A stretch of 14,040 nt of DNA, taken from IMG/VR virus record IMGVR_UViG_2681813230_000003; one strand, given 5' to 3'. Positions within the stretch are counted from its first letter, which is position 1. The number at the start of each line of letters is the position of its first letter. The position numbers were made by a program, and so were the translations under genes. This stretch comes from a virus. Taxonomy: Duplodnaviria; Heunggongvirae; Uroviricota; Caudoviricetes. This document shows positions 6,892-14,040 of this stretch, piece after piece. The notes under the pieces are model-generated. The model worked only from the letters and a program-made list of their open reading frames with translations. It was not told where the DNA came from and searched no databases.

Positions 6892-9800
6892 ATGGCTAAA
6901 ACAATTACCGGACGAAAAGGCGGGAGCTCCAGTTCCCGAACTCCCACCGAACAGCCTGATGATCTGCAATCTGTAGCGAAGGCAAAGATCCTCGTTGCGC
7001 TTGGGGAAGGGGAGTTTGCTGGACAGCTCACCGGGAAGGATATCTACCTGGACGGAACGGCGCTGGAGAACGCCGACGGCTCCCAAAACTTCAGCGGCGT
7101 TACGTGGGAATTTCGTCCGGGGACTCAGGCACAAAAATATATTCAGGGTATCCCCGGCACCGAAAATGAAATCAGCGTGGGCACCGAAGTGTCAAGCACC
7201 ACCGGCTGGACACATACCTTTACCAACACGCAACTGTCAGCCGTTCGCCTGCGCCTCAAGTGGCCATCGCTTTTTAAACAGGAGGACGATGGCGATCTGG
7301 TTGGCTATTCAATTAACTACGCTATTGATCTGCAGACCGATGGCGGCACCTGGCAGACGGTACTTAATACCAGCGTAACCGGCAAGACAACTTCCGGCTA
7401 CGAACGCAGCCATCGCGTCGACCTACCGCAGGCAGGCAGCACATGGACGGTGCGCCTGCGTAAGCTAACAGCGGATGCCAACAGCGCGAAAATTGGCGAC
7501 ACGATGACGCTGCAGAGCTACACAGAGGTCATTGACGCCAAACTGCGTTATCCAAATACCGCGCTGCTGTACATCGAATTCGACTCAAGCCAGTTTAACG
7601 GCTCCATCCCGCAAATTTCCTGTGAACCGCGCGGACGCGTTATCCGCGTGCCGGATACTTACGATCCGGAAACCCGGACCTATAGCGGCACCTGGACGGG
7701 GGCGTTTAAGTGGGCATGGACGGACAATCCGGCGTGGATTTTTTACGATCTGGTGGTGAGCGACCGTTTCGGACTTGGCGACCGCCTGACGGCGGCAAAT
7801 ATTGATAAATGGACACTTTACCAGGTTGCGCAGTATTGCGATCAGCCAGTTCCCGACGGTAAAGGCGGTACCCGAACAGAACCCCGCTATACGTGCAACG
7901 TTTATGTGCAGGAGAGGAATGATGCGTATACCGTTTTGCGTGATTTTGCGGCCATATTCCGTGGCATGACGTACTGGGGCGGCGATCAAATCGTTGCGCT
8001 GGCAGATATGCCCCGTGATGTGGATTACAGCTACACCCGCGCTAACGTGGTTGACGGCCGCTTTACCTATTCTGGCAGCACCATTAAAAACCGCTATACC
8101 ACTGCGCTGGTTTCCTGGTCTGATCCGGGTAATGCCTACGCAGATGCGATGGAGCCGGTTTTTGAACAGGAGCTCGTCGCTCGGTTTGGCACAAACCAGC
8201 TCGAAATGACAGCCATTGGCTGTACCCGGCAGTCGGAGGCAAACCGTAAGGGACGCTGGGGGATTCTGACCAATAACAAGGATCGCATCGTATCGTTTGA
8301 TGTTGGCCTGGACGGCAACATTCCACAGCCTGGTTATATTATCGCGGTTGCCGATGATCTGTTATCCGGAAAGGTGATGGGAGGGCGTATCAGCGCGGTT
8401 AATGGTCGCGTTATCACGCTTGATCGTGATTCCGCAGCCGTTGCCGGAAGCCGTCTTATGGTTAACCTGCCGTCTGGCGCATCGCAGAGCAGGACGATAC
8501 AGAGCGTAAACGGTCGGGCTGTCACCGTGACCACGGCATACAGCGAAACACCGGCAGTCGAATCGGTATGGATTGTCGAATCCGACGAGCTTTATGCACA
8601 GCAATATCGTGTTATCAGCGTCGCTGATAATAACGACGGCACGTTTTCGATTACTGGTGCTTTTCACGATCCGGATAAGTATGCCCGTATCGATACCGGC
8701 GCCATCATCGACCAGCGGCCAATAAGTGTAATTCCGCCCGGTAATCAGTCCCCGCCAGCCAACATCACGATCAGTTCGTTTTCGGTTGTTCAGCAGAATA
8801 TCAGCGTCGAAACGATGCGCGTGAGCTGGGACCAGGCGCAGAACGCTATCGCCTATGAGGGGCAGTGGCGCCGCAACGACGGAAACTGGGTGAACATGCC
8901 TCGCAGCTCCACCACGTCATTTGACGTCCCGGGGATTTATGCCGGGCGCTACCTGGTGCGCGTGCGCGCAATTAATGCCGCTGAAATTTCCTCAGGATGG
9001 GGATATTCAGAAGAGAAGACACTGACCGGCAAAGTAGGTAATCCGCCTAAGCCAGTAGGATTCACAGCCACGGGCATTAACTGGGGGATTCGTCTTAACT
9101 GGGGTTTCCCGGCAAACACCGGCGATACGCTAAAAACGGAAATTCAGTACACTGCCAACAGTGACTTTTCAGATCCACTCTTGCTCTCAGACGTGCCTTA
9201 TCCATCTGCGGAATACACCCAGCTCGGCCTTAAAGCAGGGCAGGAATTCTGGTACCGCGCGCAGCTGGTCGACAGAACGGGTAACGAGTCCGGGTATACC
9301 GACTGGATCAGGGGGATGTCTAACGATAACGCCGATGATTATTTGGGCGATATCGCAGATGATTTCCTAACCTCTGCAGACGGAGAACGCCTGACTGGTG
9401 ACATCGATACCAACATTGAGGGAATACTGCAGAACGCCCTGGCGAACCATGGAACTGTTGAGCACCAGTGGGCACAATACGGAGAAGTGCGTGCCGATAT
9501 TCTGGTGGTTAAAACGACGATTGCTGAAGTTGATAATGCAATGGCCGAACTTTCGACGCAGGTGCAGGCGCAGATTGAGGATGTTACCGCTTCCCTGGAA
9601 GACAAGCTTACAGCTGTCGTAGATGCCTCCGGTGCTTCGGCAATCCACACCCTCAAAACGGGCGTGAGAATAAACGGGGTGATTTATAACGCCGGGATGT
9701 CTATTGCAGTGCTTGCAGAGGCAGGGAAGCCGGTAGTCACGCGGGTTGGTTTCAACGCTAACCAGTTCGTGCTGATGAGCGGCAGTGGTGATACCCAGTA

Positions 9801-10074
9801 TTCGCCGTTCGCGGTGGTAAACGGTCAGGTGTTTATCAGCTCAGCGTTTATTCAGGATGGCACGATCACCAATACCAAAATCGGTAACTTTATCCAGTCG
9901 AACAATTATGTTGCCGGCTCTGTTGGCTGGAAACTGGATAAGTCCGGGACGTTTGAGAACTACGGTTCGACAGCTGGGGAGGGAGCCATGAAGCAGACCA
10001 ACCAGACAATCAGCGTCAAGGATGGCAACAACGTTCTGAGAGTGCAGGTTGGCCGATTAACGGGGGTGTTCTGA
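6892..10074 (+). CDS. J: Tail tip / central tail fibre host-specificity protein (lambda gpJ-like)
   Basis: 1060-aa ORF. The N-terminal and central regions resemble lambda gpJ (YTEVID.K..YPNTAL; QVP..Y.P.TR.YSG.W.G.FK; YCDQ.VPDG.GGTEPR.TCN.Y). The C-terminal ~250 aa diverge from my recollection of lambda's LamB-binding region. Confidence 0.92.
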   Translation: MAKTITGRKGGSSSSRTPTEQPDDLQSVAKAKILVALGEGEFAGQLTGKDIYLDGTALENADGSQNFSGVTWEFRPGTQAQKYIQGIPGTENEISVGTEVSSTTGWTHTFTNTQLSAVRLRLKWPSLFKQEDDGDLVGYSINYAIDLQTDGGTWQTVLNTSVTGKTTSGYERSHRVDLPQAGSTWTVRLRKLTADANSAKIGDTMTLQSYTEVIDAKLRYPNTALLYIEFDSSQFNGSIPQISCEPRGRVIRVPDTYDPETRTYSGTWTGAFKWAWTDNPAWIFYDLVVSDRFGLGDRLTAANIDKWTLYQVAQYCDQPVPDGKGGTRTEPRYTCNVYVQERNDAYTVLRDFAAIFRGMTYWGGDQIVALADMPRDVDYSYTRANVVDGRFTYSGSTIKNRYTTALVSWSDPGNAYADAMEPVFEQELVARFGTNQLEMTAIGCTRQSEANRKGRWGILTNNKDRIVSFDVGLDGNIPQPGYIIAVADDLLSGKVMGGRISAVNGRVITLDRDSAAVAGSRLMVNLPSGASQSRTIQSVNGRAVTVTTAYSETPAVESVWIVESDELYAQQYRVISVADNNDGTFSITGAFHDPDKYARIDTGAIIDQRPISVIPPGNQSPPANITISSFSVVQQNISVETMRVSWDQAQNAIAYEGQWRRNDGNWVNMPRSSTTSFDVPGIYAGRYLVRVRAINAAEISSGWGYSEEKTLTGKVGNPPKPVGFTATGINWGIRLNWGFPANTGDTLKTEIQYTANSDFSDPLLLSDVPYPSAEYTQLGLKAGQEFWYRAQLVDRTGNESGYTDWIRGMSNDNADDYLGDIADDFLTSADGERLTGDIDTNIEGILQNALANHGTVEHQWAQYGEVRADILVVKTTIAEVDNAMAELSTQVQAQIEDVTASLEDKLTAVVDASGASAIHTLKTGVRINGVIYNAGMSIAVLAEAGKPVVTRVGFNANQFVLMSGSGDTQYSPFAVVNGQVFISSAFIQDGTITNTKIGNFIQSNNYVAGSVGWKLDKSGTFENYGSTAGEGAMKQTNQTISVKDGNNVLRVQVGRLTGVF

Positions 10075-10075
10075 T

Positions 10076-10378
10076 ATGGCTTATGGAATACAGACCTGGG
10101 ATGCTTCGGGAAACCCCAACAACTACGGAATCAAGCCCGTTTCCGTTGTTGGACGTATACAACTTGCCGCCGGACAAAACTCCGGCAGCTGGTCTTTCAC
10201 TGTACCCTCAGGAATGAAGGTCGGTTTTGCGCTCTCACTTGATGAAGGAGGTAACAGCGTAGGGAGGAGCATTGTCGCGTCAGGGAACACAATAACCGTA
10301 ACCGCAGCCTCTTCTGTGGGCCTGGGTAATTACCCGGCCTCTAAATGTGAGGTGGTCGTTTTCATGGAGAAAGCATAA
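10076..10378 (+). CDS. Hypothetical protein, J-distal; one copy of a WDASG-containing domain
   Basis: 100-aa ORF starting 2 nt after the J stop, with a G-rich SD-like stretch upstream. It shares a motif (G.xxxWDASG...SGSW) with the next ORF. No homologue recognised from memory. Confidence 0.55.
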   Translation: MAYGIQTWDASGNPNNYGIKPVSVVGRIQLAAGQNSGSWSFTVPSGMKVGFALSLDEGGNSVGRSIVASGNTITVTAASSVGLGNYPASKCEVVVFMEKA

Positions 10379-11052
10379 TGGCCGAATTTGGCGCGATGAT
10401 ATTAATGGATAACGGGAATCCCTTTGTAACGCCACAATCAACGCCTTTCTGTCTTTACGGGAAGTATACCTTCAATTCATCCGCGAATGGCAGTTCTCAG
10501 CAGGTTGCTCAAAATATCGCTTTAAACGCTGATTACCCAGTGATGGTTTTTATCAAAACCACCAATACAGCACAGCCCACTCCGGTTATGTCTTACAGGA
10601 ACGGCGGTAATGTGTATGTTGTTGGTGTTAATCCCTACAACCAAAGTTTCACTTTAACGGCGTACGTTTTTGCCATATTCCCGCAGATATTACCGAAATG
10701 GGGTTTGGCAATATGGGATGCGAGCGGAAAGCTTGTGTTAACTAATGAGTCCCGTGTGCTATCAGACCTGCAGACGGTTGGCACGCCTGGTGCAAACGGC
10801 GGGATAAATATTGACCAGACGCTGAGCGGGTCATGGGCCGTTGCACCTGCTCAGTTGGGTCAGACCATCATTGTGAATAATTCAACCCAGCCTCCGACTA
10901 TCTACACGATAAATGCTTATTCTTCATGCAGGTTTGACGGGGCCAATACGAGGATAAACGCAGGGGGGACCTCCACTGGGACAGGTTCACCTGTAGGGGG
11001 AACGAATACTGGCATTTCATTAACCGCCATAAATACAGCGGCCTATGATTGA
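10378..11052 (+). CDS. Hypothetical protein, J-distal; two copies of the same domain plus a Gly/Thr-rich C-terminus
   Basis: 224-aa ORF translationally coupled to the previous ORF (ATAATG overlap; GGAG 9 nt upstream). An internal GLAIWDASG...SGSW segment parallels the N-terminus of the upstream protein, and its own N-terminus has a GAMILMDNGNP variant. Lower GC than J. Confidence 0.55.
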   Translation: MAEFGAMILMDNGNPFVTPQSTPFCLYGKYTFNSSANGSSQQVAQNIALNADYPVMVFIKTTNTAQPTPVMSYRNGGNVYVVGVNPYNQSFTLTAYVFAIFPQILPKWGLAIWDASGKLVLTNESRVLSDLQTVGTPGANGGINIDQTLSGSWAVAPAQLGQTIIVNNSTQPPTIYTINAYSSCRFDGANTRINAGGTSTGTGSPVGGTNTGISLTAINTAAYD

Positions 11053-11089
11053 TTGATCGTTTTTAGCGATCAATAACATAATATTGATC
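11052..11089. repeat. AT-rich intergenic inverted/direct repeats carrying three GATC sites
   Basis: ATTGATCG (11052-11059) and CGATCAAT (11067-11074) form an 8-bp inverted repeat with a 7-nt spacer; a third ATTGATC lies at 11083-11089. GATC occurs at 11055, 11068 and 11086. Confidence 0.4.
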
Positions 11090-11163
11090 TATCCAATCAA
11101 TTATACCCACCAGAATTGTATTGGTATCGTCTAAGATACTGAATTCCTCTGGATACTATCAAA

Positions 11164-11397
11164 ATGAGAAAACTGATTATCTGCATGGCAGGCGCTGTCA
11201 TGCTTACAGGATGCGCTGGCGTAATTGAGAAACAGGAACCAGTTTGCAGCGGCACTGCAATCGTTGGCGGTCAGGAAACTACGGTTCAGATTTACGGTGT
11301 GCGTAAACAAAACAACCAGACGCAGTACCGGGCTGGATATCCTTTCAGCTGGCGCTGGGTAAGTGCGAATACATTTACCGAAACAACCTGCAAATAA
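11164..11397 (+). CDS. Small lipoprotein (moron); candidate superinfection-exclusion lipoprotein (Cor-like, speculative)
   Basis: 77-aa ORF with a lipoprotein signal peptide and lipobox (MRKLIICMAGAVMLTG|C). It is flanked by an AT-rich regulatory-looking region upstream and a hairpin plus T-run downstream, and sits between tail-tip and tail-fibre genes, where cor-type exclusion genes occur. The RBS is weak. Confidence 0.55.
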   Translation: MRKLIICMAGAVMLTGCAGVIEKQEPVCSGTAIVGGQETTVQIYGVRKQNNQTQYRAGYPFSWRWVSANTFTETTCK

Positions 11398-11418
11398 CCC
11401 ACTACGCTTAAACATAAA

Positions 11419-11440
11419 CCTCGCTCCGGCGGGGTTTTTT
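11419..11440 (+). terminator. Rho-independent terminator downstream of the lipoprotein gene
   Basis: CCTCGC-TCCG-GCGGGG stem-loop (6 bp including one G-U pair, 4-nt loop) followed by TTTTTT(A)TT, 22 nt after the stop codon. Confidence 0.6.
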
Positions 11441-11460
11441 ATTGCCCGAAAGGAGCGCAT

Positions 11461-12321
11461 ATGTCTGCAGGAACTATCACCCTGACAAACGGGTCCGCTG
11501 TTGTTGGCGGTGCCGGAACCTCATTCGCAACCGAACTCGCCGGAGGTGATTTCATTGTTTCGGCTGTGGGCGGTGTGCCCTACACGCTGCCGGTGAAAAC
11601 GGTCGACAGTAATACCCAGGTGACGCTGGTCAGCAACTTTACCGGGCCAACGCAATCCGGCGCTGCCTGGTCAGCCATCCCCCGCGTTGCTCTGAACATG
11701 GTCACTGCCGCGCTTGTGGCGCAAAGTGCTGAAGCCCTGCGTGGACTGAATTACGACAAACAGAACTGGCAGCAGGTTTACAGCGCCGCCGGAAACATCA
11801 CAGTGAAGTTGCCAGACGGCACCACCTTCACCGGCCCATCATGGAAATATCTGTCTGACAATATGGCAACCAAGAGCGGTGGGGCCGTACCTGTTAACCA
11901 GGGAGGGACCGGGGCGACAACCAGAGACGCCGCGCTGTCCAATCTGGGTATCACCTATGTCAGGTCAGGAACAAACTCCAGCGTGATAAAAATTGACGAT
12001 ATTTATCAAATGGATTTCCTCATAGGTGGCGGCATCGCAGTAGGAGCATACAACCCTCAGACAGTGGGAGGTATTACGTATTACACGCACTACTATAAAG
12101 TGCCGCTCCCCGTCGCATTACCTAACGGCATTATTATTGCCGTTGCGTCCATTTCAGGCGACAGATTTGGAAATCAAAACCCCGGATACAATGCAGACGT
12201 AAAAACATGCAGAGATAAAGATGATGGCACCGGGCTATCAACAACATATCTAACCGTCAGCGTTAAAACAGCTCAGACAGGCTGGGTCCCGTATTTTCAT
12301 GTAAGAGTGGTAGGGTATTGA
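11461..12321 (+). CDS. stf: Side tail fibre protein (Stf-like) with mosaic C-terminal receptor-binding region
   Basis: 286-aa ORF with AAGGAG 5 nt upstream. It contains a ...NQGGTGATTRDAALSNLGI motif of the kind I recall as conserved in phage tail fibres, and is followed directly by a Tfa-family chaperone gene. GC content drops sharply after about 12000. Confidence 0.65.
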   Translation: MSAGTITLTNGSAVVGGAGTSFATELAGGDFIVSAVGGVPYTLPVKTVDSNTQVTLVSNFTGPTQSGAAWSAIPRVALNMVTAALVAQSAEALRGLNYDKQNWQQVYSAAGNITVKLPDGTTFTGPSWKYLSDNMATKSGGAVPVNQGGTGATTRDAALSNLGITYVRSGTNSSVIKIDDIYQMDFLIGGGIAVGAYNPQTVGGITYYTHYYKVPLPVALPNGIIIAVASISGDRFGNQNPGYNADVKTCRDKDDGTGLSTTYLTVSVKTAQTGWVPYFHVRVVGY

Positions 12322-12322
12322 T

Positions 12323-12736
12323 ATGAAATATTTTTACAGCATCAGCACGCAGGGATTTTACCTCGATAACGGTATGCTGTCTGCGTATGAAGCGGCTGGC
12401 TCACTACCTGCGGACTTGCAAGAGATGAGCGAGGCTGACTATCTGGCGTTTTTTAATCCTCCCGATGGATTCGCGGGCATATTTGACGAGAAAGGACCGC
12501 GTATTGAACAACTGCCAGAACTGGACCCGCTGGCGATAGCAGAAAATCAACGGCGGCTGTTGCTGTCAGAAATCGCTCCGACTATTTCTGTATGGCAGAC
12601 AAAAATCCTGGTGGGCATGAAACTGAGTGATTCAGAAACCGCAGCCCTGCATGCCTGGTTGAGCTACAGTGATGCGCTGAACGCGCTGGATATCACCGTG
12701 CCAGATATTCAGTGGCCTGAAAAACCCGCAGCGTGA
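12323..12736 (+). CDS. tfa: Tail fibre assembly chaperone (Tfa family; lambda Tfa / Mu U-like)
   Basis: 137-aa ORF starting 2 nt after the stf stop. The C-terminus (LHAWLSYSDALNALDITVPDIQWPEKP) matches the conserved Tfa C-terminal signature (...W..Y...L..VD.S.APDIEWP..P in lambda Tfa). Confidence 0.8.
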   Translation: MKYFYSISTQGFYLDNGMLSAYEAAGSLPADLQEMSEADYLAFFNPPDGFAGIFDEKGPRIEQLPELDPLAIAENQRRLLLSEIAPTISVWQTKILVGMKLSDSETAALHAWLSYSDALNALDITVPDIQWPEKPAA

Positions 12737-12750
12737 TGTGATTTTCATTA

Positions 12751-12778
12751 ACCGGGCAGAAAAGGATGACTGCCCGGT
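12751..12778. terminator. Possible bidirectional terminator hairpin between convergent tfa and dinI-like genes
   Basis: ACCGGGCAG / CTGCCCGGT is a perfect 9-bp inverted repeat with a 10-nt loop, lying between the two convergent stop codons. No clean T-run follows on either strand. Confidence 0.3.
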
Positions 12779-12793
12779 GATGTGAATATGTAA

Positions 12794-13033
12794 TTAATCA
12801 GCAACCAGCCACATGTCAGATTCTTCAAACATCTCTTCAAGCATACGATTAAGCCGTTCTTTCTCTGTTTTCGTGCAGTTGCTGTTTAGCGCGTTCGCCT
12901 GCATCGGCTTTACCTTCACTTCGGCACCAGGGAAAATCTGGTGCACCCGCTTCGTCAGTTCGGCCAGAATGATCTCCCTGGCCCCTTCGAGCCCCTCAAC
13001 ATTTCGCTTGTCATAAACCAGTTCAACAAACAT
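12794..13033 (-). CDS. dinI: DinI-family protein (DNA-damage-inducible protein I-like)
   Basis: 79-aa product MFVELVYDKRNVEGLEGAREIILAELTKRVHQIFPG...EKERLNRMLEEMFEESDMWLVAD aligns over its full length with remembered E. coli DinI (81 aa; ...LSRRIQYAFPD...KEDKQRISEILQETWESADDWFVSE). SD AAGAGGA lies upstream. The longer ORF-track ORF (to 13420) is an antisense run-on. Confidence 0.85.
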   Translation of the reverse strand: MFVELVYDKRNVEGLEGAREIILAELTKRVHQIFPGAEVKVKPMQANALNSNCTKTEKERLNRMLEEMFEESDMWLVAD

Positions 13034-13432: not shown

Positions 13433-13460
13433 CCATCAAAAATCTGGTGATGCTTCGCCG

Positions 13461-13487
13461 TTTCTCCTGTTTTCATAACAGGAGAAA
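13461..13487 (+). promoter_or_regulatory. Perfect 11-bp inverted repeat (stem-loop) that includes the invertase Shine-Dalgarno
   Basis: TTTCTCCTGTT (13461-13471), loop TTCAT, AACAGGAGAAA (13477-13487). The right arm contains AGGAG (13480-13484), 7 nt upstream of the invertase ATG at 13492. Confidence 0.45.
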
Positions 13488-13491
13488 TCCC

Positions 13492-14040
13492 ATGATTTAC
13501 GGTTATGCCCGAGTATCAACAAACCACCAGGACACTGAATTGCAACTAACGGCGCTCAAGTCAGCGGGTTGTGAGAAAATTTTTGAAGAGCATGCCAGCG
13601 GGAGGAAATCGAATCGGCCGGTTCTAAAACGGCTGATCGCCACTATGCAGCCGGGGGATGAACTGGTGGTCTGGAAGCTGGACAGGATAGGCCGCAACGT
13701 TCTGCATGCGCTGTTGATGTTCCAGCAGTTACAGGAAAAGGGTATCAACTTCCGCAGTATTACCGATGGCGTGGATCTCAAAACAGCCAGCGGCCGCTAT
13801 AACTTTCGTAACATCCTTTCCGCAGCACAATATGAATCTGATCTTAATAGCGAACGTACCTTAGCAGGGCTGGCCGTAGCCAGGGCAAAAGGGCGAGTTG
13901 GTGGTCGCAGGCCTAAGTTCACGGATGAGCAATGGCGGGAAATGGGGGAGCGGATGGCAACCGGTGAATCACGACAAAGCGTATCAAAAACGTATGGAGT
14001 AGGGCTCTCAACTCTGTATAAAAAGTTTCCAGCTAGCTGA
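13492..14040 (+). CDS. Serine-recombinase DNA invertase (Hin/Gin/Pin/Cin family)
   Basis: 182-aa product MIYGYARVSTNHQDTELQ...GDELVVWKLDRIGRN...GINFRSITD...ERTLAGLAVARAKGRVGGRRPK...GVGLSTLYKKFPAS is highly similar across its whole length to remembered Gin/Hin, including the catalytic Ser in the RVST motif and the C-terminal HTH. Start chosen at the ATG with an AGGAG SD; the ORF-track start at 13447 lacks one. The stop is the last codon of the window. Confidence 0.92.
   Translation: MIYGYARVSTNHQDTELQLTALKSAGCEKIFEEHASGRKSNRPVLKRLIATMQPGDELVVWKLDRIGRNVLHALLMFQQLQEKGINFRSITDGVDLKTASGRYNFRNILSAAQYESDLNSERTLAGLAVARAKGRVGGRRPKFTDEQWREMGERMATGESRQSVSKTYGVGLSTLYKKFPAS

Follow-up and report, generated by a model that had tools for sequence, protein, structure and literature searches.

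A 46-base-pair (bp) element in front of a small lipoprotein gene in the tailed-phage record IMGVR_UViG_2681813230_000003 is likely to be an operator, at positions 11056 to 11101, through which the host regulator OxyR controls that gene in a manner sensitive to Dam methylation. The DNA analyzed here, a stretch of 14,040 nucleotides (nt) that we call the window, matches Enterobacteria phage HK225 (JQ086371) with 100% identity by megablast. The gene, which the first-pass annotation of the window had described as a lipoprotein moron, is by sequence identity cor, the FhuA-blocking superinfection-exclusion gene of phages phi80, N15 and HK022. Specifically, the phi80 Cor protein and the window lipoprotein are 100% identical, and the gene has the other attributes of its family: it encodes a small lipoprotein homologous to Cor of phi80 and N15, and it forms a promoter-terminator moron located after J, gp22 and gp23. 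Cor inactivates FhuA, which shuts out FhuA-dependent phages, gives protection from colicin M and lowers ferrichrome uptake (PMC3594210). The arrangement of its upstream DNA makes it probable that this classic phage-exclusion gene is controlled epigenetically.

We hypothesize that OxyR, a host LysR-type regulator, would bind as a tetramer to two half-sites set one extra helical turn apart, as reduced OxyR does at gtr and agn43. The half-site at 11056-70 would present the first two GATC sites (GATC1 and GATC2) and that at 11087-101 the third (GATC3). Occupancy by OxyR would shield all three sites from Dam, and methylated GATCs would exclude OxyR. After replication the two states would contest the operator and each would tend to be inherited, such that lysogen lineages would come to differ in cor expression. 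This arrangement should suit bet-hedging, given that Cor would trade protection from FhuA-dependent phages and colicin M against reduced ferrichrome uptake. OxyR binding, methylation sensitivity and heritability are predictions for cor, and bistable expression among lysogens is plausible, though we advance it tentatively. A preference of OxyR for unmethylated cor DNA is suggested by operator arms that are identical to those of gtr OxyR(A) (PMC2909390).

The class of mechanism is already known from mom, agn43, gtr and opvAB, and the membership of cor appears to be new. A full-text literature search, outside of which most subscription journals fell, returned nothing that links cor to OxyR, Dam or phase variation. 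As a textbook lysogenic-conversion gene, cor has so far been assumed to be expressed constitutively from a simple moron promoter. If our proposal is correct, one more gene joins the small OxyR/Dam regulon, and receptor blocking by prophages becomes, alongside O-antigen modification (gtr, opvAB), a phage defense that is hedged epigenetically, in this case with the explicit cost of lost FhuA-mediated iron uptake. The proposal would also affect how the phage susceptibility of lysogens is read, for example in T1/T5/phi80 typing or in escape from phage therapy.

Architecture of the predicted operator

The first-pass annotation had drawn attention to a cluster of three GATC sites between gp23 and cor, and correctly placed them at 11055-58, 11068-71 and 11086-89. 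It was equally right about three copies of ATTGATC in this gap (11052-58 and 11083-89 on the plus strand, 11068-74 on the minus strand), the first of which overlaps the TGA stop codon of gp23, and about the 8-bp inverted repeat ATTGATCG-N7-CGATCAAT at 11052-11074. The heptamer itself is not the functional unit, as had been supposed. Diverged relatives (Rahnella, Hafnia and Kluyvera) have AACGATCG or AACGATCT in its place, yet they keep the GATCs and the OxyR elements, so the unit is better described as an OxyR half-site plus GATC. Furthermore, a count of four ATTGATC copies is unremarkable, being reached in 32 of 200 shuffles. ATTGAT/ATCAAT hexamers occur five times in the region, which exceeds what the OxyR model needs, and an outer 12-nt inverted repeat brackets the operator (11044-11055, TATGATTGATTG; 11094-11105, CAATCAATTATA; 92% complementary).

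The statistical argument made for the cluster holds only in part. Locally, it is right to expect about 0.13-0.15 GATC per 35-40 bp, but this ignores that 14 kilobases (kb) had been scanned: when the window was shuffled 2000 times with dinucleotides preserved, a triple at least as tight arose in 432 cases (21.6%). We nonetheless regard the cluster as non-random because it lies in one of the few intergenic gaps of the window, because its three GATCs are the only ones in the 3.1 kb from 9864 to 12971, and because their fixed 13- and 18-bp spacing is kept in diverged relatives. The surrounding GATC desert spans the end of J, gp22, gp23, cor and the side tail fiber genes. A second tight triple is located near the start of the window, at 359, 367 and 401 (span 359-404).

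The match to OxyR can be read directly from the operator. The distal core ATCG-N7-CGAT (11056-11070) agrees with the half-site consensus ATAGnTnnnAnCTAT at 8/10 positions, and the proximal half-site frame at 11087-11101 reaches 7/10 in HK225 and in 40 of 61 relatives. The three GATCs overlap the first and second elements and the first element of the proximal half-site. When the stretch 11056-11092 is instead scored against the classical 37-bp consensus ATAGnTnnnAnCTAT-N7-ATAGnTnnnAnCTAT, the match is 16/20, the best in the window, where the next best is 13. Proven sites under identical scoring give 16 (oxyS), 17 (grxA), 14 (katG), 13 (ahpC), 14 (agn43) and 13 (mom). The maximum in 31 kb of other phage DNA is 13, a score of 16/20 has P of about 5e-6 per position, and none of 2000 shuffles of the gap reaches it. 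Half-sites of at least 7/10 occur with P = 0.01 per position, and a pair of the cor type was found at 0 of 73,270 background positions. HK225 holds both a contiguous frame (N7 spacer) and an extended frame (N16 spacer), of which the latter is the conserved one. The N16 spacer should be compatible with an OxyR tetramer, for which Mu mom provides the precedent. A third half-site following after N7 or N17 (11100-14) reaches only 4/10 in HK225; a score of 6/10 is confined to the HK022/mEp390 lineage.

Among the closest known counterparts is the mom operator of phage Mu, which in reverse complement reads [7/10]-N16-[7/10] with GATC offsets of -1, 12 and 30, compared to [8/10]-N16-[7/10] and identical offsets at cor. 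In both cases the operator lies in front of the promoter that drives a phage accessory gene, and at mom OxyR tells methylated from unmethylated DNA (Bolker & Kahmann 1989 and Hattman & Sun 1997, cited in PMC3378877 and PMC2909390). The orientation of the cor operator relative to its promoter is inverted, such that the half-site with two GATCs is distal and the operator abuts the -35 position. In Mu, the operator lies further upstream, at about -100 to -60, of an activator-dependent late promoter. Moreover, mom is a lytic-phase gene, whereas cor is expressed from the prophage.

Similarly, the agn43 operator in reverse complement reads [8/10]-N17-[8/10] with offsets of -1, 12 and 31, its spacer being one base longer. 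Like cor, it forms a single OxyR tetramer site with three GATCs, and agn43 also resides in a prophage (CP4-44). A 54-nt local alignment with agn43 in this orientation scores 49 (22±4 for shuffles) and brings all three GATCs into register, and the alignment with gtr scores 46 (23±3.6 for shuffles), which places both 6-7 standard deviations over shuffled sequences. The agn43 operator overlaps the -10 element and the start site and runs downstream, and OxyR acts there purely as a repressor, whereas the cor operator lies upstream of its promoter.

In the regulatory region of P22 gtr, the sequences ATTGATCGgtaacaaCGATCAAT and ATTGATCGcttgtatCGATCAA correspond to the arms of 11052-74. The distal arms of cor, ATTGATCG-N7-CGATCAA(T), are identical to the gtr OxyR(A) and OxyR(C) half-sites, including a pair of GATCs 13 bp apart. 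OxyR binds these gtr half-sites only when they are unmethylated, and they drive phase variation (PMC2909390). Also as at cor, the spacing at gtr is the extended type used by reduced OxyR, and the regulated gene is a prophage lysogenic-conversion gene that alters a phage receptor (PMC2909390). The gtr region is organized as A-N17-B-N17-C with four GATCs, as 13-bp pairs in A and C and none in B, and offers two alternative OxyR positions that activate or repress, whereas cor has two half-sites, three GATCs and one position. Finally, Salmonella opvAB likewise has GATC-bearing OxyR sites upstream of its promoter, and its product alters the cell surface and gives phage resistance at a fitness cost; its operator differs in that four OxyR sites, together with four GATCs, are occupied alternately, and its gene products are unrelated to Cor (PMC4856963, PMC4652898).

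The idea of a Dam-dependent, OxyR-type switch put forward in the first-pass annotation is thus strongly favored, at the level of sequence, by gtr-identical arms, mom-like spacing and offsets, the 16/20 score and selective conservation of the GATCs. Its Lrp variant fares poorly, since the Lrp-like consensus is matched no better than in shuffles (906 of 2000). A switch of the pap type would have GATC boxes about 102 bp apart and a PapI-like co-regulator, whereas the cor GATCs span 35 bp, and no papI/papB-like gene was found near cor. A switch combining Fur and Dam, as at sci1 of enteroaggregative Escherichia coli, was also rejected: the best Fur match, at 11/19, is equaled in 1479 of 2000 shuffles, and relatives do not preserve it.

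Conservation and natural variants

Phage records, GTDB genomes and IMG/VR together supplied 108 cor loci, which reduce to 71 distinct 150-nt upstream sequences. The three GATCs, with exact 13- and 18-bp spacing and at a constant distance from the start of cor, are present in 59 of the 71. This spacing is kept in Escherichia, Enterobacter, Pseudocitrobacter, Buttiauxella, Rahnella, Hafnia and Kluyvera; in the genera other than Escherichia, Cor identity is 54-77% (54-68% in Rahnella, Hafnia and Kluyvera) and the flanks cannot be aligned. The conserved pattern reads GATCG-N7-CGATCAAT-N10-A..GATCTAT-N3..CAATTAT. After it comes an extended -10 element, TGnTAnnnT, found at the equivalent position in 69 of the 71 sequences.

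Conservation per position, computed on representatives less than 85-92% identical, is 93-98% for the GATC bases, 70% for other site positions, 61-66% for the remainder of the gap and 57-62% for the 3' end of gp23. Four bases that complete the GATCs and fall outside the OxyR consensus or at its N positions (G11055, C11071, G11086 and T11088) are 93-95% conserved, compared to 70% at other N positions. Because these bases match the consensus positions in conservation, selection appears to act on GATC itself, beyond what OxyR recognition demands.

Some relatives depart from this pattern. In Enterobacter sp. ENT03 (cor 53% identity), the canonical ATAG replaces ATCG at the first OxyR element, which is the GATC1 site; its GATC2 and GATC3 are retained with their 18-bp spacing, and the operator lies between about -110 and -70 relative to cor. 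Of the cor loci that have any GATC, the most distant are those of Erwinia and Pantoea, in which two GATCs (TTCGATCATTTCGATCGAT) are set 9 bp apart, at -79 and -70 from cor; this may be a different or degenerate operator. No GATC occurs in the 200 nt upstream of the cor homologues (33-60% identity) of the virulent phages T1 and jat or of the temperate phages ES18, SSU5 and an Stx2a phage. The operator belongs to the J-gp22-gp23-cor module of the lambdoid/N15 type. Among complete E. coli genomes, 45 carry the module, NZ_CP029242 being one example.

Promoter geometry and competing explanations

Several observations weigh against an epigenetic operator at cor and temper our confidence in it. The density of GATCs is by itself a weak argument, as a cluster of three is not rare in 14 kb. 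Conservation is poor at 11078-81, which forms the third element of the contiguous frame, so that the 16/20 value is partly specific to HK225 (relatives score 13-15), and the N16 spacer is one base short of the N17 of gtr and agn43. The core ATCG-N7-CGAT also has the generic T-N11-A geometry of a LysR box, which could serve another regulator. The start site from which promoter distances are counted comes solely from the annotation of the phi80 record.

Natural variants point in the same direction. In the clade of HK022, HK75 and about 12 related phages, GATC1 has become GATT and GATC3 has become TATC; the OxyR elements and GATC2 are kept, and this operator may be a naturally 'locked' variant. 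N15 retains the distal half-site only. Independent deletions between ATCAAT repeats have removed the proximal half-site in phage ECP1 and in an IMG/VR locus, L100. Aligned to the window, they extend over about 11075-11101 and 11075-11120, respectively, the latter taking the -35 region as well, and both leave the distal palindrome beside the extended -10 element. As cor is intact in the HK022 clade, N15, ECP1 and L100, the switch is evidently dispensable. Furthermore, the exclusion of FhuA phages by lysogens of phi80, N15 and HK022 is described as robust (PMC3594210, PMC2885432), which argues against a large OFF subpopulation.

The positions of the -35 region (11100-05), the extended -10 element (11122-30) and the start site (about 11138) were transferred from the annotation of the phi80 record FN582354. 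On this basis the operator would occupy -82 to -37 and abut the -35 position, an arrangement similar to that of the oxyS OxyR site, which we measure at -74 to -38. An operator ending at -37 would bring OxyR into contact with the zone of the -35 element and the carboxy-terminal domain of the RNA polymerase alpha subunit. By analogy, OxyR at cor could activate, as at oxyS and gtr OxyR(AB), or repress, as at gtr OxyR(BC), mom and agn43. We slightly favor an intrinsically active extended -10 promoter that is modulated by OxyR in the manner of gtr, because variants lacking the proximal half-site or two GATCs keep an intact cor; a repressor role like that at mom and agn43 is the alternative. The variants inform the sign of regulation weakly, given that the promoter can work without the full switch.

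An alternative promoter inside the operator, TTGATC-18-CATAAT, was considered and rejected, as its -10 element is specific to HK225 and its -35 element is absent in relatives of the Rahnella type. On the minus strand, the block CAATTATA contains a perfect -10 hexamer, TATAAT, at 11105-11100 (GATAAT in Rahnella and Kluyvera), which points left into the operator in an agn43-like geometry and has no good -35 partner. A leftward antisense transcript across gp23 may start from this hexamer.

Among other explanations, the strongest is that cor carries a conventional, redox-responsive OxyR site with incidental GATCs and no epigenetic heterogeneity. The contiguous site of HK225, with its 16/20 match, has the geometry preferred by oxidized OxyR and equals oxyS, and because OxyR limits iron-driven damage, a block of FhuA under peroxide stress would, we reason, make sense. 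However, this explanation does not account for the conservation of GATC-completing bases outside the consensus, for an extended frame that is conserved when the third element of the contiguous frame is not, or for GATC offsets that coincide with those of mom, an operator at which OxyR binding is under the control of methylation. We consider it unlikely.

The repeats might instead be bound by another protein, such as a different LysR-type regulator, H-NS, IHF, Fur, FNR or a phage factor, with the likeness to OxyR being coincidental. Besides the generic LysR-box geometry noted above, TTGAT/ATCAA resemble FNR half-sites, the region is AT-rich, horizontally acquired DNA, and Fur would be an attractive link because Cor targets FhuA. 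Yet the best Fur match is reached by 74% of shuffles; the FNR-like match (8/10) has the wrong spacing and is reached by 16%; CRP and Lrp sites are no better than in shuffles; and the gap contains no match to the IHF consensus. A phage-specific factor is unlikely given that the module is common to phages of differing immunity regions and to P2-like phages. The identity of the arms to a proven OxyR half-site makes this entire class of explanation quite improbable.

An RNA function has still less to recommend it. As RNA, 11052-11074 could fold into a 10-bp stem (-10.2 kcal/mol) directly 3' of the gp23 stop codon and might act as a stabilizer, processing site or weak terminator at the end of the gp23 late message, with the GATCs as by-products. 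However, no U-tract follows the stem, no Rfam match was obtained, and in Rahnella, Hafnia and Kluyvera (AACGATCG...CGATCAAT) the outer pairs are lost with no compensatory change, although the GATC cores are kept. Such a hairpin also leaves GATC3, the fixed 18-bp spacing and the conserved proximal half-site unexplained. In the P2-like locus L235, the operator is directed away from the adjacent late genes, toward a 40-amino-acid gene on the opposite strand into which it reads. We therefore judge the hairpin very improbable. That the cluster is a functionless accident of an AT-rich gap can scarcely be maintained, despite the 22% of window shuffles with an equally tight triple, because different genera share its position, spacing and flanks even though the neighboring sequence diverges.

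Recurrence before other prophage genes and the surrounding locus

A scan of IMG/VR for TTGATCG-N7-CGATCAA yielded at least 120 loci. Among the matches listed, a third GATC exactly 18 nt further occurs at least 72 times, and about half of these are not at cor. Such operators, of the form GATCG-N7-CGATC-N14-GATC, are found among loci L125-L244 (for example L235:3258, L242:4141, L228:2533, L137:6792 and L132:12092). In P2-like phages, the operator precedes the gene for a 40-amino-acid membrane peptide or that for a 47-amino-acid protein, both in the gap between G (tail-fiber assembly) and FI (sheath), known as the Z/fun site; the fun(Z)-FI gap of P2 itself does not contain the operator. Elsewhere it precedes genes for a secreted TonB_C-domain protein (PF03544, E=3e-15), a 100-amino-acid membrane protein and a D12-class adenine methylase (PF02086). 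The last has four GATCs spaced by 13, 18 and 13, and could be a self-regulating phage Dam.

In these non-cor cassettes, the proximal half-site scores 6-8/10 in the extended frame and only 3-6 in the contiguous one. By reading of the sequences, it abuts a good -35 hexamer at L242, L195, L210 and L150. Because the operator precedes unrelated genes, it travels with promoters of accessory genes and not with the gp23 family. This speaks against a function linked to gp23, for example as an RNA hairpin.

These occurrences raise the more speculative possibility of a portable epigenetic cassette that has been attached repeatedly to accessory genes of lambdoid, P2-like and other temperate prophages across Enterobacterales, with bistable exclusion as its outcome at cor. 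If so, lysogens would hedge resistance to FhuA phages and colicin M against iron uptake through ferrichrome. This recurrence is a more novel lead than the membership of cor, and operators in front of small prophage genes provide a sequence signature for finding further epigenetically switched morons.

The features of the locus are compiled in the table below.

Table. Predicted regulatory elements and neighboring genes of the cor locus in the window
Feature	Position	Strand	Description
Whole predicted OxyR operator	11056..11101		46 bp, ATCGtTtttAgCGAT-N16-ATCTaTccaAtCAAT; GATC offsets -1, +12, +30
Predicted distal half-site, in inverted repeat	11052..11074		ATTGATCG-N7-CGATCAAT; carries GATC1 and GATC2
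Predicted proximal half-site	11087..11101		ATCTaTccaAtCAAT; 7/10; first element overlaps GATC3
Alternative proximal half-site, contiguous N7 frame	11078..11092		ATAAtAttgAtCTAT; 8/10
Conserved CAATTATA block	11097..11105		overlaps end of proximal half-site and -35 position
cor promoter, extended -10	11122..11130	+	TGgTATCGT
Intergenic gap, gp23-cor	11053-11163		111 bp; 31.5% G+C
cor	11164..11397	+	77-amino-acid lipoprotein; signal peptide with lipobox LTGC; phrog_1119, E=7e-37
Rho-independent terminator closing the cor moron	11416..11437	+	
Central tail fiber J	6892-10074		HK225 record and profile searches
gp22 homologue	10076-10378		HK225 record and profile searches
gp23 homologue	10378..11052	+	upstream late gene; phrog_425 'membrane associated protein' (profile search)
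Side tail fiber and its assembly protein			3' of cor terminator
dinI		-	after side tail fiber genes
DNA invertase, Hin/Gin type	13447-14040		Resolvase and HTH_7 domains; start in record 13492; 3' of fiber/assembly genes

For the invertase, we found no alternative inverted fiber segment, and the only inverted repeats found were weak, with 72-78% complementarity.

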